Sequence record: NC_055780.1
Strand: one strand, 5' to 3'
Length of the DNA: 64,000 nt
DNA from: Escherichia phage MLF4
Shown: piece after piece, positions 22,735 through 63,723 of the stretch
Layout: each line of letters opens with the position of its first letter
Numbering within the stretch: the first letter of the stretch is position 1
Made by a program: the position numbers and the translations under genes
Notes under the pieces: generated by a model
Database searches by the model: none
What the model was told of the DNA's origin: nothing
What the model saw: only the letters and a program-made list of their open reading frames with translations

Positions 22735-23544
22735 TTAGAAACGAGATGCGACTTTCGCATATACACTTACAATATCTTCTGCACCTTGTGCAGATTTATC
22801 TTCTACAGCTTCAGTGACGAAATTCAGTCCGGCTGCTTCAGTATCAGGAGTATTTATACTCTCAGTAATAGTGCTTTCATCTTTATTAGATTTCTTCACC
22901 ATTTCTACGATTGCACTCAATTTACTTGAGAATGCATCTGAATAATCAATACCTTCGACCAGAGCAGAGACTTTTTCTTTTTGAGACTCAGTCAGATCTT
23001 TAGTACTTTCGCTCAATGCCACTTCACGCTGCACATAATTGATATATGCGTCACGCTTATTGAGTTCTTCGAACAGACGAGCTGATTCTTCTTTGTGTTC
23101 TTGCAGTTCTTCTTCCATTTCAGCTACAACATCAACTGATTCTTCTGGAACAACAACGTTGTGTTCAACGAAGAGCTCTTTCAATCCACCAAGCATGGAT
23201 TCAAACAGTTCGGCTTTGATGCCTTTATCTACTGCTAATTTATTTTCAGTGAGCCATTCTTTTGCAAGATGGTCAAGGAATTTAGAAGCTTGCTCAGCGA
23301 TTTTCTTCTCAGCTTTTTCTTCTGCTTCTTCTTTATTTTTTTCTACTTCTTCTTCTGCTTTTTCAGCAATTTTAGCGATATGAGATTCAGCTAATTTAAC
23401 GGCGTGCTGCTTGACGGTAGCTTCGAATACAGTGCCGAAAGTTTCTTTTGCTTCCGGAGAAATATTAACTGATTCGAAAATACTATCAAGAGCAACGGAA
23501 GCATCAATTTTCTGCGCTTCGGCAATCAGTTGTTCTTTAAGCAT
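22735..23544 (-). CDS. 22: prohead core scaffold protein gp22
   Basis: 269 aa as in T4 gp22; highly acidic/helical. Confidence 0.85.
   Translation of the reverse strand: MLKEQLIAEAQKIDASVALDSIFESVNISPEAKETFGTVFEATVKQHAVKLAESHIAKIAEKAEEEVEKNKEEAEEKAEKKIAEQASKFLDHLAKEWLTENKLAVDKGIKAELFESMLGGLKELFVEHNVVVPEESVDVVAEMEEELQEHKEESARLFEELNKRDAYINYVQREVALSESTKDLTESQKEKVSALVEGIDYSDAFSSKLSAIVEMVKKSNKDESTITESINTPDTEAAGLNFVTEAVEDKSAQGAEDIVSVYAKVASRF
22851..22858 (-). promoter_or_regulatory. candidate late promoter TATAAATA for gene 23 (inside gene 22 3' end)
   Basis: plus-strand TATTTATA about 135 nt upstream of gp23 ATG; only match in the region. Confidence 0.4.
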
Positions 23545-23571: not shown

Positions 23572-23579
23572 TATTTATA
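23572..23579 (-). promoter_or_regulatory. late promoter TATAAATA (gene 22)
   Basis: plus-strand TATTTATA 28 nt upstream of ATG at 23544, overlapping gp21 stop. Confidence 0.65.
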
Positions 23580-24213
23580 ACGCTTTTTTCATGGCCTCTG
23601 CGAGAGCCATATAGGCGTCATCGGCACTTGTATCGGCTTCCGCCGTCTGTGATTCGGTAATTTCCTTAGGAGTTACCCATGCATCTGGAGCACTTGGACC
23701 CCATACTGCATCAACACCTACAGTTAATTTGAATCCTTCGTTTACGATACGATAACCTTTATTTGTGTCAGTCAATGAACCTAATCCACGAGAAGAAACT
23801 CCTGGAATCCATCCGGCACGAATATTAGCTGCTAATTTATCTCCAGGACCATGGTCACCTTCAATAACACGAGCTCGTCCGTATACGTCATTTCCTTTCC
23901 ACCACATATCTTCTATAATGATAGCGGCTTGCATCGGGTCAACATTAGCGCGTGGAGGATGATTTAATTCTCCGAGAGCTTGTTTAGTTAAAACTTGCTC
24001 ATTAATATAGTCTTTTACCGCTTTTTCTAATATGCGTTTTGGATAAAGACGTTTATTTCTATTGACGACTTCCGCTTGCATAAATATTCCTTCGATGTAT
24101 AAACCAGGTTTTAAACCTAAGTCTTTTCCATCATGAGATTCAAGCATTGGTACGCCATCAATAATTTCGCCAGGTTGACCCCAAGTTTCAATTAGTAATT
24201 GGGGTTCATTCAT
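23575..24213 (-). CDS. 21: prohead core protease gp21
   Basis: 212 aa as in T4 gp21; synteny. Confidence 0.9.
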   Translation of the reverse strand: MNEPQLLIETWGQPGEIIDGVPMLESHDGKDLGLKPGLYIEGIFMQAEVVNRNKRLYPKRILEKAVKDYINEQVLTKQALGELNHPPRANVDPMQAAIIIEDMWWKGNDVYGRARVIEGDHGPGDKLAANIRAGWIPGVSSRGLGSLTDTNKGYRIVNEGFKLTVGVDAVWGPSAPDAWVTPKEITESQTAEADTSADDAYMALAEAMKKAL

Positions 24214-52327: not shown

Positions 52328-53052
52328 ATGAAACTAATCTTTTTAAGCGGTGTAAAGCGTAGTGGAAAAGATACTACTGCTGATTTTATCATGAGCAATT
52401 ATTCTGCAGTTAAATACCAACTTGCTGGTCCTATTAAGGATGCATTGGCTTATGCATGGGGAGTATTTGCAGCAAACACTGGCTATCCTTGCTTAACTCG
52501 TAAAGAGTTTGAAGGAATTGACTATGATCGTGAGACTAATTTAAATCTGACTAAATTAGAAGTAATCACGATTATGGAACAAGCATTTTGCTATCTTAAT
52601 GGTAAAAGCCCAATTAAGGGTGTGTTTGTTTTTGATGACGAAGGACAAGAATCAGTTAATTCCGTAGCATTTAACAAGATTATTGACGTTATAAATAATA
52701 TTGAAGATCAATGGTCAGTCCGTCGTCTGATGCAAGCCCTAGGTACGGATTTGATTGTTAATAACTTCGACCGCATGTACTGGGTAAAATTATTTGCTTT
52801 AGATTATCTTGATAAATTTAACTCAGGTTATGATTATTATATCGTTCCTGATACCCGTCAAGATCATGAAATGGATGCGGCTAGGGCGATGGGTGCTACA
52901 GTAATTCATGTAGTTCGTCCTGGTCAAAAATCCAATGATACACATATTACAGAAGCTGGATTGCCAATTCGTGATGGTGATTTAGTAATTACAAACGATG
53001 GTTCTCTTGAAGAACTTTTTTCTAAAATTAAAAATACACTAAAGGTACTATA

Positions 53053-53053: not shown

Positions 53054-53762
<709 letters not shown>

Positions 53763-53770
<8 letters not shown>

Positions 53771-53792
53771 ACTGATGAGGTAGTGATACTAT
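53763..53792 (+). promoter_or_regulatory. early promoter with overlapping stem-loop (PeSL-like cassette)
   Basis: GTTTAC at 53763, 18-nt spacer, TACTAT at 53787; inverted repeat TGAGGTA...TACCTCA (53776..53799) spans the -10. Confidence 0.6.
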
Positions 53793-53823
53793 TACCTCAT
53801 CAAAATTAATTAGGAAAAATAAA

Positions 53824-54054
53824 ATGAAAACTTATAAAGAGTTTGCTACAGAAACTATTATCACTGAATCTTCTCATGGTATGGAAGTAAAGCTTGGAAT
53901 GGCTTTAGCTGAAGCTGAGCGTCTTTTCTCTCGTATTAAAGAACTTGCTGCTGCAGTCGATCCTTCGTCTTTTAAAGGAGACCAAACTAAAGTTAAAGCA
54001 CTTTTAGCATTATGCTCTGACGCAGGAGAAATCGCTAAAATGGTTCTAAGATGA
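53824..54054 (+). CDS. internal protein (IPI-locus) with capsid targeting sequence
   Basis: 76 aa; N-terminus MKTYKEFATE fits the T4 internal-protein capsid-targeting consensus MK(T/S)YQEF(I/L)xE with an (L/I/A)-x-E gp21-type cleavage site at residue 10. Confidence 0.7.
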   Translation: MKTYKEFATETIITESSHGMEVKLGMALAEAERLFSRIKELAAAVDPSSFKGDQTKVKALLALCSDAGEIAKMVLR

Positions 54055-54068
54055 AGAAACGATTAGAA

Positions 54069-54100
54069 GATTTAAAATAATTTCACAAAGTTGTTTACAC
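54069..54100 (+). repeat. 32-bp direct repeat copy 2
   Basis: identical to 53739..53770. Confidence 0.85.
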
Positions 54101-54122
54101 GGGGTTTTAGTAGTGATACTAT
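54093..54122 (+). promoter_or_regulatory. early promoter (duplicate cassette)
   Basis: GTTTAC at 54093, 18-nt spacer, TACTAT at 54117. Confidence 0.6.
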
Positions 54123-54150
54123 TACCCTATCAACTACTGAGGAGAATAAA

Positions 54151-54336
54151 ATGAAACGTTGTGAATTAATTCGAAATGTTGCTATTGCAATTTCTGCTTC
54201 CGCTTTTAGTTTTTCAATGTTTGTTGGATTTATATGCGGATTATTAACTACAGCAGAAAATGTATTTTCACTTGTAGTAGCATTTTTAATTGGTTTAATT
54301 GCTATCGTTATGGATAAAATTTCTAAAGGTGAGTAA
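54151..54336 (+). CDS. small predicted membrane protein (61 aa)
   Basis: ATG at 54151 with GAGGAG SD; two hydrophobic helices (AIAISASAFSFSMFVGFICGLL, VFSLVVAFLIGLIAIV). Confidence 0.55.
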   Translation: MKRCELIRNVAIAISASAFSFSMFVGFICGLLTTAENVFSLVVAFLIGLIAIVMDKISKGE

Positions 54337-54337
54337 A

Positions 54338-54718
54338 ATGTATAAAGTATATGCAGATTATCAGGCTAATCCATCTGAAAAGCCAGATTGCCAAATTGGA
54401 TGGGCTCATGATACTTTGCTTGAAGCAGTAGATGCTGCTCAAAAATTAGGATATAAATATGTAGAGATTGTTCAACCGACAGGAAAAGTTATTACTCTTG
54501 AAGAGTTCAATAATATTAAACCGAACTTTTTACTTTTTGCAGGTGATAATTATTATCCTCGCGGTGGATATGCTGATTTAATCGCGAAAGCCGCTACCGA
54601 AGATGAACTTCGTGATATTATCAAAGAAAATGAAAACAAACCGATGTATGGTTCTAATCGCTTTGATTGGTGGCAAATTGTAAATGCCCACACTCATACT
54701 ATTGTTGATGAAGGGTAA
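54338..54718 (+). CDS. hypothetical protein (126 aa)
   Basis: ATG at 54338 with AAAGGTGAG SD directly after upstream stop; no recognisable domain. Confidence 0.55.
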   Translation: MYKVYADYQANPSEKPDCQIGWAHDTLLEAVDAAQKLGYKYVEIVQPTGKVITLEEFNNIKPNFLLFAGDNYYPRGGYADLIAKAATEDELRDIIKENENKPMYGSNRFDWWQIVNAHTHTIVDEG

Positions 54719-54720
54719 TA

Positions 54721-55011
54721 ATGATTCTTTATGCTAAAGTATCGTCCATTGAAAATGGATATAAATATGATCAAGAAGCAGCTAAAGCCTTGATTGATGA
54801 TTATGGCATTTTAACATGTTTTGAAGTTGAAAAGGTTTACATTGACCGTTCATCTTCTCAGGTTAAATTAGTGAAGGAAGACCGTAAATTTAATACAGTA
54901 AATTTTGATTTCTTTATTGAAACAGAAAAAGGTCCTCTTGAATATGATATTTTCAAGAATCCTTTAAGTCTTGAATGTATTAAATATACTTATATTAATG
55001 CAGCGTGGTGA
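54721..55011 (+). CDS. hypothetical protein (96 aa)
   Basis: ATG 3 nt after upstream stop; no recognisable domain. Confidence 0.5.
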   Translation: MILYAKVSSIENGYKYDQEAAKALIDDYGILTCFEVEKVYIDRSSSQVKLVKEDRKFNTVNFDFFIETEKGPLEYDIFKNPLSLECIKYTYINAAW

Positions 55012-55013
55012 AA

Positions 55014-55526
55014 ATGAATATTTGTTTAGGTACTACAATTCCGCAGGGTTACGTAATTGATGTCACTACCTGGGAAAATGATGGTGACAACTATAAAACT
55101 AAAACGCTGTTTGGCGTAGAAGAGCATGAAATCTTACAGTTCCAATATCTTTTAAAGAAGTTTAAAAGCAGACATTCTAGTACTAAAGCTGAACGTTATT
55201 GTGGTAATGGCTTGTTCAGCGAGCAATCGCTTTTTATTTATGAATACTTGGTTGAAGGACTGTTCTCAGAACAACTTTATCCAGAATTCATTAAAAAGGT
55301 CTTTGATATAGAAGTTGACCTTGGTAATAAATCCGAAGAAGATGAAGAACGTGTATTTGACTTATTCTTTGTGAATGGTAATAAGATATTTGAAGGCCTT
55401 ATTGATATTCTTGGTCATGCTTCTGAATATTATGACTATGATTTCTTGCGTGTAGTTGAGAGTGTTAAATACTCTTATATAGAAGAAATTGTTTTGCCGA
55501 CCGTTAAAATGTTTAATTTGCTTTAA
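55014..55526 (+). CDS. hypothetical acidic protein (170 aa)
   Basis: ATG at 55014 right after upstream TGA; track ORF begins at GTG 55005. Confidence 0.5.
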   Translation: MNICLGTTIPQGYVIDVTTWENDGDNYKTKTLFGVEEHEILQFQYLLKKFKSRHSSTKAERYCGNGLFSEQSLFIYEYLVEGLFSEQLYPEFIKKVFDIEVDLGNKSEEDEERVFDLFFVNGNKIFEGLIDILGHASEYYDYDFLRVVESVKYSYIEEIVLPTVKMFNLL

Positions 55527-55625: not shown

Positions 55626-56234
55626 ATGGATACTAAATTAGCTGAAATTTTTGAAGGAAAACATCCAAATTTTAGTACAGGAAAGCTGAAAGACAAAATA
55701 ATAAAAGAAAATATTTTTCCATATGAGTGTGCAATTTGTAAAATTTCAAAATGGCAAAATAAGCATATTGTTCTGCAATTAGACCATATTGATGGAAATA
55801 ACAAAAATCATCTTAAATCAAATTTAAGATTATTATGTCCAAACTGCCATTCGCAAACTGATACTTTTGCTGGTAAAAATATTAAAAATAATAAAAAGCG
55901 TTATAATGTTAGTGATGAAGAAATTTTAAACGCACTATTAAATTCGGCTACTATATCATCTGCAATTACTTCATTAGGTTTAAGTAAAGGCGGAAACTAT
56001 AAAAGATTCATTAAAATTGCTAATGATAATAAATTATATCATTTACTGGTAAATATTAATGAAAAGATTTTAACTGATGAAATTTACGAAGAATTAGTTA
56101 AAATCGATTATTCTAAATTTGGATGGGTTAGTAAAGCTGCTAAAATAATAGGTATAAGCCCACAAAAAGCTAGAAAATGGATAGAACGAAAGTGTCCAGA
56201 ATTGATAGAACAGTCTTTTTCACGTAATAAATAA
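55626..56234 (+). CDS. freestanding HNH homing endonuclease
   Basis: canonical HNH core IVLQLDHIDGNNKNHLKSNLRLLCPNCHSQTD with CAIC/CPNC zinc ligands; ATG at 55626 (track ORF starts at TTG 55602); immediately upstream of the tRNA cluster. Confidence 0.85.
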   Translation: MDTKLAEIFEGKHPNFSTGKLKDKIIKENIFPYECAICKISKWQNKHIVLQLDHIDGNNKNHLKSNLRLLCPNCHSQTDTFAGKNIKNNKKRYNVSDEEILNALLNSATISSAITSLGLSKGGNYKRFIKIANDNKLYHLLVNINEKILTDEIYEELVKIDYSKFGWVSKAAKIIGISPQKARKWIERKCPELIEQSFSRNK

Positions 56235-56240
56235 TATAGC

Positions 56241-56327
56241 GCGAGAATGGTCAAATTGGTAAAGGCACAGCACTTAAAATGCTGCGGAATTATTTCCTTG
56301 TGGGTTCGAGTCCCACTTCTCGCACCA
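56241..56327 (+). tRNA. tRNA-Leu (anticodon UAA)
   Basis: cloverleaf folded by eye: acceptor GCGAGAA/TTCTCGC, anticodon stem CAGCA/TGCTG with loop CTTAAAA, long variable arm, T-loop GGTTCGAGTCC, CCA encoded. Confidence 0.85.
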
Positions 56328-63249: not shown

Positions 63250-63723
63250 ATGAAAACATATCAAGAATTTATTACTGAAGCAGCTATTAATTCTCAAATT
63301 ATTGCTGAATCTTTTACTGATCTTTTGAAATTTAAAAAAGGTCAAAAAATCACTGCTGTATTGGATGATGGTACAGAAGTTGAGATGGATGTACAGGGAT
63401 ATAATTATGCAGTAGATGGAAAACTGTATAATAAATCTCATGCTAAATTTGATTCATTTGACGACTTTGTTAATACAGTTGAAGATGAAAAAACTCGTCG
63501 ATCCATTGTAACTGGTGATGCTAAGGTTCTTATGGCACATGGTCATGAACGCATTCGCGCTAAACAGAATAAAATGGGTGAAGATAATTTTGCATTAGTT
63601 GGTTATCAATCTGGTAAGCAAACTTATGGCTATCAGCGTACTGCTACCATGTATAATAAAAATGGTAAAATTGCCTTTGTAAATAGTAAAGGTTCTATTC
63701 AGTACGTTAAATCGTTCAAATAA
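63250..63723 (+). CDS. internal protein-like (capsid targeting sequence), 157 aa
   Basis: N-terminus MKTYQEFITEA is a near-perfect T4 internal-protein CTS with I-T-E cleavage motif. Confidence 0.7.
   Translation: MKTYQEFITEAAINSQIIAESFTDLLKFKKGQKITAVLDDGTEVEMDVQGYNYAVDGKLYNKSHAKFDSFDDFVNTVEDEKTRRSIVTGDAKVLMAHGHERIRAKQNKMGEDNFALVGYQSGKQTYGYQRTATMYNKNGKIAFVNSKGSIQYVKSFK

Follow-up and report, generated by a model that had tools for sequence, protein, structure and literature searches.

What protein is encoded at the internal-protein locus of Escherichia phage MLF4, and why is it shorter than its relatives? The locus lies in the stretch of DNA analyzed here, 64,000 nucleotides (nt) of sequence record NC_055780.1 (the window), which belongs to a T4-like phage of the genus Tequatrovirus. 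An open reading frame (ORF) at 53824-54054 on the plus strand has an ATG start and a TGA stop, and its product of 76 amino acids (aa) begins with MKTYKEFATE, just as an earlier, sequence-only reading had described. That reading took the ORF for an internal-protein gene at the T4 ipI locus, whose product would be packaged, injected with the DNA and directed against host restriction. The best explanation, which we consider highly probable as a whole, is that the ORF is the ip5 allele of a Tequatrovirus in the slot of T4 ipI, bracketed by promoter cassettes and shortened by a frameshift, and that its product is a candidate for packaging and for a role against host defense.

The ORF product matched the PHROG 3499 family, 'internal head protein' (E 6e-41), over profile positions 1-72 of 85, and its residues 1-72 are 100% identical to Ip5 of phages RB51 and RB68. 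The exact 76-aa sequence is already deposited (AYR03745.1 / YP_010099774.1, 'internal head protein [Escherichia phage MLF4]'). The sequence-only reading had held that close identity to an already characterized internal protein would speak against its proposal. The gene is no new one but ip5, and the objection applies in part, Ip5 being known by name rather than by function. Over 701 nt around ip5, identity to about 190 phage records was 95-99.7%. Annotations as Ip5 are found in T2, T6, RB51 ('similar to Ip5 from T6, T2, RB15 and RB70'), ime09, wV7 and PP01, and as ipV in Yersinia phage PST; the name ip5 was reportedly given in phage RB15 in 1994. A tblastn search with Ip5 repaired to 85 aa matched 495 records. 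About 267 of these, with at least 80% identity, are from Tequatrovirus, including T2 and T6, and about 228, with approximately 51% identity, are from related T4-like genera. The literature and GenBank thus already contain the gene with its name, locus, leader and flanking repeats, and the private frameshift described below is the sole new item, a minor one.

The position of the ORF agrees with this identity. The gene order is gp1 (deoxynucleoside monophosphate kinase), 57A, 57B, ip5, tRNA.4, tRNA.3, tRNA.2 and the transfer RNA (tRNA) cluster. Gene 57B (53295-53750, plus strand; Pfam PF23474, Acb1, an anti-CBASS family, E 2.6e-60) is the conserved left border of the internal-protein (IP) locus, at a position matching that in T4, RB51 and Sf23. 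The conserved right border, tRNA.4 (54151-54336, plus strand; a 61-aa predicted membrane protein, PHROG 1692, E 6e-35), is the same gene in these three phages. The slot between 57B and tRNA.4 holds ipI in T4, so that the assignment of an internal-protein-type gene to the ipI locus stands, and the layout is identical in RB51 and Sf23. A Shine-Dalgarno-like AGGA, read from the sequence, is found at 53812-53815 on the plus strand, 8 nt 5' of the ip5 ATG. There are two IP loci, 57B-tRNA.4 and e-denV, and ip5 of MLF4 occupies the first. In the sampled records of the group with approximately 51% identity, the homologue was found at the other IP locus, beside the lysozyme gene e. In the Gaprivervirus VR25, for example, a 93-aa homologue with about 51% identity (2501-2782 of the VR25 sequence) is located at e-denV; its ATG overlaps the 3' end of gene e, and no promoter cassette lies 5' of it. 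The presence of Ip5 homologues at e-denV in Gaprivervirus-type phages indicates that the family has moved between the two IP loci.

Why, then, does the MLF4 product have only 76 residues? The gene in RB51 and Sf23 is 258 nt long and encodes 85 aa. Alignment showed GCTAAAAATGG in these two phages against GCTAAAATGG in the window, a run of five A being reduced to a run of four at 54037-54040 on the plus strand; the other public alleles have five. The frame shifts after K72: the native protein ends with ...EIAK-NGSKMKKRLEDLK (85 aa) and the window product with ...EIAK-MVLR (76 aa), residues 1-72 being native and residues 73-76 out of frame. The untranslated remnant of the native C-terminus (GSKMKKRLEDLK and its stop; 54042-54080, plus strand) is preserved out of frame, base-for-base identical to Sf23 and RB51, and its TAA stop, at 54078-54080, falls within the second promoter cassette. 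An 81-nt probe over the frameshift site matched 243 records, none of them identical and all spanning 82 nt. The 85-aa forms occur on hundreds of contigs; no contig other than that of MLF4 was found to encode the exact 76-aa protein. The 76-aa length is a private frameshift and not a property of the family. The short length remarked on in the sequence-only reading results from a 1-nt deletion in a gene whose family encodes 85 aa.

Through the deletion, the product is deprived of 13 native residues at its C-terminus, among them the conserved motif NGSKMKKRLE and most of a predicted third helix. The stretch EIAKNGSxMKxRLE is among the best conserved between the Tequatrovirus proteins and their relatives with about 50% identity (VR25 and other Gaprivervirus-type phages), which indicates that the lost segment is no dispensable tail; the full-length architecture with this C-terminal helix is absent from the product of the window allele. 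The 85-aa form was modeled with AlphaFold2 from a 9-sequence alignment, giving a predicted local distance difference test score (pLDDT) of 82.9 and a predicted template modeling score (pTM) of 0.64, with a disordered leader and helices at residues 17-44, 54-63 and 67-83. Mature Ip5 is accordingly predicted to be a three-helix bundle. In the model of the 76-aa form, helix 3 is kept only to residue 74, pTM is 0.54, and the number of residues with pLDDT of at least 90 falls from 54 to 23, a difference that is no more than suggestive. Programmed frameshifting at the A run, in which a -1 slip would restore exactly ...AKNGSK..., was considered and rejected as unsupported, because U-AAA-A is no slippery heptamer and transcriptional slippage would need a longer run than four A. 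Public data contain further Ip5 alleles that are shortened or frameshifted, namely P0005 (50 aa), P0022 of phage UPWr_E2 (66 aa), P0003 of RB70 (82 aa) and P0002 of T2 (84 aa). Recurrent damage or small deletions in ip5 fit either a dispensable accessory gene or recurrent sequencing errors.

What suggests that the protein is packaged? Work on IPIII of T4 showed that its first 10 residues are sufficient for capsid targeting, with residues 4 and 7 of this capsid-targeting sequence serving targeting and residues 8 and 10 serving processing; the prohead protease gp21 cuts after L/I-x-E, and the propeptides of internal proteins have 10-19 residues (PMC9026906, a review of work from the Black laboratory). 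Ip5 begins with MKTYKEF, containing an aromatic residue at position 4 and Phe at position 7. The pattern MKT(Y/F)xEF in residues 1-7 is common to Ip5 and 10 compared internal proteins outside the Ip5 family, including T4 IPI, IPII and IPIII, RB15 Ip7, Ip8 and Ip9, and VR25 Ip7, Ip10 and one unnamed protein, in keeping with the leader recognized by the sequence-only reading. In six-frame translation, the window has just two instances of the broader pattern M[KQL]T[YF]x[EKT]F, one in ip5 and one at 63250-63723. The latter, on the plus strand, is a second internal-protein gene at the other IP locus and the only other ORF of the window with such a leader; it encodes 157 aa with the leader MKTYQEFITE/AA (a slash marks the cut) and matched Pfam DUF7412 (E 2.5e-95) and PHROG 3155, 'internal virion protein'.

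A gp21-type motif had also been claimed, and one is present, although not where the first ten residues would place it. Position 8 of Ip5 is Ala, and position 10 is Glu in the window and Lys in T2, RB15 and IME537 (A-T-K), so that A-T-E10 is neither canonical nor conserved. By contrast, E15 is invariant, with I or L at -2, in all 9 aligned homologues, including those with approximately 50% identity; variants of the site are L-N-E/A in VR25-type proteins and the short leader MQTYQTFITE/SSHG in P0004. The likely cleavage site, judged from this conservation, is I13-T14-E15/S16, which agrees with the L/I-x-E motif and the propeptide length given above. The putative propeptide consists of residues 1-15 (MKTYKEFATETIITE; 53824-53868, plus strand). 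The N-terminal peptide predicted for cleavage after E15 is SSHGMEVK, and that for cleavage after E10 is TIITESSHGMEVK. The mature protein of intact alleles would have 70 aa, an isoelectric point (pI) of approximately 9.2 and 13 Lys and Arg residues, and that of the window allele 61 aa and a pI of approximately 7.9. The enzyme expected to cut the propeptide, gp21, is encoded in the window at 23575-24213 on the minus strand (Pfam Peptidase_S77, E 1.5e-111), as is the scaffold protein gp22, at 22735-23544 on the same strand (T4_CASP, E 3.1e-90).

How did this gene come to occupy the slot? The direct repeat and the duplicated promoters reported on both sides of the gene were borne out. An exact 32-bp repeat (GATTTAAAATAATTTCACAAAGTTGTTTACAC) is located at 53739-53770 and 54069-54100 on the plus strand, forming the core of a 69-nt repeat at 53735-53803 (copy 1) and 54065-54133 (copy 2) whose copies are 86% identical. 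According to a promoter scan, both copies carry a match to a sigma-70-type promoter (53764-53792 and 54094-54122), in which TTTACA and TACTAT are 17 nt apart and TG precedes the -10. In copy 1, an A/T-rich 5' part is followed by the -35 at 53764-53769 and the -10 at 53787-53792, and in copy 2 these elements are at 54094-54099 and 54117-54122. In each cassette, an inverted repeat also surrounds the -10, and a Shine-Dalgarno sequence and the start context AAAATGAAA are present; the record of phage Lutter annotates the corresponding sites as 'promoter'. Repoila and colleagues reportedly described, in 1994, a conserved block of 70 bp with an early promoter of the T4 type. The inverted repeat of copy 1 forms a predicted hairpin at 53773-53802 with its loop overlapping the -10 (-17.4 kcal/mol, z -5.1), and that of copy 2 is weaker (-12.9 kcal/mol, z -1.8). 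No intrinsic terminator was called at either cassette, no Rfam family matched 53600-54400, and covariation of the hairpin across 13 cassettes was not significant (72.8% paired versus 71.8% in shuffles, 50/500). The hairpin is thus treated as a feature of some copies and is no demonstrated RNA element.

Cassettes of this type recur in other phages. T4 has virtually identical ones on both sides of ipI, a near-identical cassette is found 5' of RB15 ip5, and one precedes tRNA.4 in T4, RB15, IME537 and Bas42. RB15 carries five cassettes for four ip genes and tRNA.4, and IME537 and Bas42 each carry three, for ip5, an extra 77-aa IP gene and tRNA.4. Among 15 aligned cassettes, GTTTAC, GTGATA(C/T)TATTA, GGA and AAAATGAAA are invariant. 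The first cassette of Bas42 (AndreasVesalius; 364-410 of its sequence) is chimeric: its 5' half is of the copy 2 (tRNA.4) type and its 3' half of the copy 1 (57B) type, with the joint within the shared GTGATACTATTACC core and the hairpin broken. As judged from its sequence, this chimera is a direct trace of recombination between cassettes, and the alignments plainly point to the cassettes as the joints at which genes are exchanged. Cassette exchange, as proposed in the sequence-only reading, thus gains support from the chimera and from the phages with multiple cassettes, but the idea is already published: later papers (PMC2839356, PMC4122927) credit Repoila et al. (1994) with finding repeats with promoters at both IP loci and with suggesting that IP genes are shuffled. 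The T-even IP elements have been described as analogues of the promoter-early stem-loops (PeSLs) of RB49/phi1-type phages (Arbiol et al., 2010, PMC2839356; Comeau et al., 2014, PMC4122927), short promoter-hairpin repeats on either side of small accessory genes, at which recombination shuffles modules, as it does at the T-even cassettes. Unlike PeSLs, the T-even elements have T4-type early promoters and weaker, AT-rich stems (PMC2839356), and in the window cassettes the hairpin overlaps the -10 and no U-run follows.

The left edge of the repeat reaches into coding sequence. The final codons of 57B and its TAA (..GAC GAT TTA AAA TAA) fall within copy 1, and 57B ends with ...ADDLK, native Ip5 with ...LEDLK, whereas the VR25-type homologues diverge exactly after RLE. 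Because the repeat covers these last codons and the VR25-type proteins diverge where they begin, the DLK tail and stop of the Tequatrovirus Ip5 proteins probably came with the cassette. A segment of approximately 100 nt within 54061-54182, comprising copy 2 and the start of tRNA.4, recurs at 89-93% identity in many T4-like phages of Klebsiella that are otherwise unmatched in this region, indicating that the cassette is conserved well beyond Tequatrovirus. The extra IP gene of IME537 (692-991 of its sequence) has an annotated start, TTG, that lies within the cassette; its real start is probably the internal MKTFKEFINE. Gene 57B itself, directly 5' of the IP slot, is labeled 'RNA ligase' in RefSeq records despite being a member of the Acb1 anti-CBASS family. 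A known counter-defense gene therefore abuts the IP cassette locus, with its final codons belonging to the repeat.

What might Ip5 do? The T4 proteins offer the closest guide. IPI, which in its mature form (IPI*) inhibits the GmrSD enzyme of E. coli CT596, occupies the same 57B-tRNA.4 slot between virtually the same two cassettes. IPI and Ip5 share the leader MKT(F/Y)KEF and an I-T-E motif that ends a long propeptide (E19 in IPI, E15 in Ip5), and both mature proteins are small and basic. However, the two show no sequence similarity past the leader, and IPI* has a small alpha/beta structure (PMC9026906) whereas Ip5 is predicted to be all-alpha, so that Ip5 is no homologue of IPI. IPII and IPIII, the inhibitors of GmrSD-ECOR21 and GmrSD-ECOR17, respectively, bear a capsid-targeting leader, like Ip5, and are injected and non-essential, and their locus beside gene e is the one at which the Gaprivervirus-type Ip5 homologues are found. 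Their mature sequences are unrelated to that of Ip5, and their propeptide has 10 aa (IAE/A). Ip1, Ip2 and Ip3 each block one distinct GmrSD-type type IV restriction enzyme with no cross-protection (Silas et al., 2025, PMC12373910). T2 and T6, both of which carry Ip5, are restricted by GmrSD-ECOR21 and GmrSD-ECOR17 (PMC12373910). As these phages have Ip5 and lack Ip2 and Ip3, Ip5 is no replacement for the latter two, and any restriction enzyme that it targets must be another one.

On the model of Ip1-Ip3, the following course can be proposed. The Ip5 precursor would be made early from the cassette promoter, and late expression would probably depend on read-through from a TATAAATA late promoter motif at 52690, inside gene 1. 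The leader would dock the precursor to the prohead core, gp21 would remove residues 1-15, and the small, basic, three-helix mature protein would stay in the head and be injected with the DNA. Once in the host, it may block one particular defense, most likely a GmrSD-type type IV restriction enzyme different from those of ECOR17 and ECOR21. The truncated product of the window allele would be expected to be still packaged, since its leader is intact, but is likely impaired as an effector, since the conserved helix 3 is lost. Packaging, injection and an anti-restriction role are all inferred here from the behavior of Ip1, Ip2 and Ip3. The view of the sequence-only reading, in which the protein is a candidate effector against restriction, is thus a reasonable hypothesis, though no new one.

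Several observations weigh against this account. In a BLASTP comparison of Ip5 with T4 IPI, IPII and IPIII, as the sequence-only reading had recommended, and with Ip7-Ip10, the leader alone aligned; the mature part proved unrelated, its best match having an E of 0.15 over 19 residues, and the best E against T4 IPI was 2.8. The mature part matched no family in Pfam, NCBIfam or PADLOC, and neither sequence nor fold comparisons, including the PDB, matched it to a solved or predicted viral structure outside its own family. A phmmer search over 1.84 billion representative proteins returned only the cluster of the Ip5 family itself. With no similarity to IPI, IPII, IPIII, known families or known structures, the argument for an anti-restriction role is one of pure analogy. 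No TATAAATA late promoter lies directly 5' of ip5, the motif at 52690 being the nearest on the plus strand, and the literature searched yielded no data on the function of Ip5, on its presence in virion proteomes or on its injection. Finally, the frameshift itself could be a sequencing error.

The packaged protein might be a generic basic filler of the core, associated with DNA and aiding head assembly or DNA condensation, as was once assumed for the T4 internal proteins. The small size, pI and 13 basic residues of the mature protein would suit such a role, T4 internal proteins are present at approximately 360 copies per head and IPIII mutants have head-assembly defects (PMC9026906), and T2 and T6 remain restricted by two GmrSD variants despite carrying Ip5. 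Yet all three of the T4 internal proteins proved to be specific inhibitors of type IV restriction (PMC12373910), the locus turns over rapidly between close relatives (ipI, ip5, ip6, ip7, ip9 and extra genes), as would be expected of an arms race more than of a structural role, and the frameshifted allele is viable, all of which makes the filler role rather improbable. We regard it as very improbable that Ip5 is not packaged at all, being an early cytoplasmic protein whose leader resembles those of internal proteins as a by-product of a repeated DNA cassette that reaches into the first codons. The homology between cassettes does include AAAATGAAA, which is also used by tRNA.4, a non-IP gene (MKR...), and the sole promoter directly 5' of ip5 is of the early type. 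However, residues 4 (Y/F) and 7 (F), the targeting determinants of IPIII, and E15 are kept in homologues with approximately 50% identity, these homologues lie at the other IP locus behind gene e with no cassette, and the leader motif is otherwise found in the window only at the second IP locus.

A further question is whether the frameshift is real. It seems unlikely, if less so than either of the roles just discussed, that the missing A is a homopolymer error of sequencing or assembly, in which case the phage itself would encode the ordinary Ip5, intact at 85 aa, and the deposited sequence would have created the 76-aa ORF as an artifact. The change is a loss of 1 nt within an A run, the native frame downstream is intact through its stop, the deletion is seen in none of the other 243 records, and the 76-aa protein is confined to a single contig, all as would be expected of an error. 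Against this, comparison with JY01 (98.2% identity over a colinear alignment of 23.6 kb) showed every indel except the A-run deletion to be a multiple of 3 in length, indicating that the assembly is not generally prone to homopolymer errors, and a run of five A is short for such errors. In addition, ip genes are dispensable on laboratory hosts (PMC9026906), so that a real loss of function would be tolerated, and the 50-aa and 66-aa alleles mentioned above are further broken ones.

Returning to ip5 as the gene for an injected effector, a more specific proposal can be advanced, tentatively and at somewhat less than even chances: Ip5 may be an injected three-helix inhibitor, unrelated to IPI*, of a defense that lacks a paired phage counter-measure, either a further GmrSD or type IV subtype or another system, and the MLF4 allele may be a natural C-terminal truncation with loss of function or altered specificity. 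If so, comparison of MLF4 with the near-isogenic, Ip5-intact phages Sf23, JY01 and Sa45lw could pinpoint the target of Ip5. Disarming of a specific defense by Ip5 would add a fourth pairing to the arms race between Ip1-Ip3 and GmrSD and would help account for the different host ranges of therapeutic T4-like phages. As for the frameshift, which is private and lies in a dispensable gene, its main value is as a caution for annotation and as a possible natural knock-out.

Two other features were observed farther downstream, toward the tRNA cluster. Between tRNA.2 and the tRNA cluster, the plus strand carries a 173-aa ORF (55005-55526; PHROG 2290) that Sf23 and JY01 share and that T4 and RB51 lack. 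An HNH endonuclease gene at 55626-56234 on the plus strand (PHROG 14736, E 5e-124) occupies the place of tRNA-Gln, with junctions at approximately 55619 and 56238. The tRNA-Gln gene is present at this site in Sf23, JY01, RB51 and T4; in the window its remnant consists of the first 7 nt, and the tRNA cluster begins with tRNA-Leu at 56241. A homing endonuclease gene appears to have been inserted here, with the loss of a tRNA gene.
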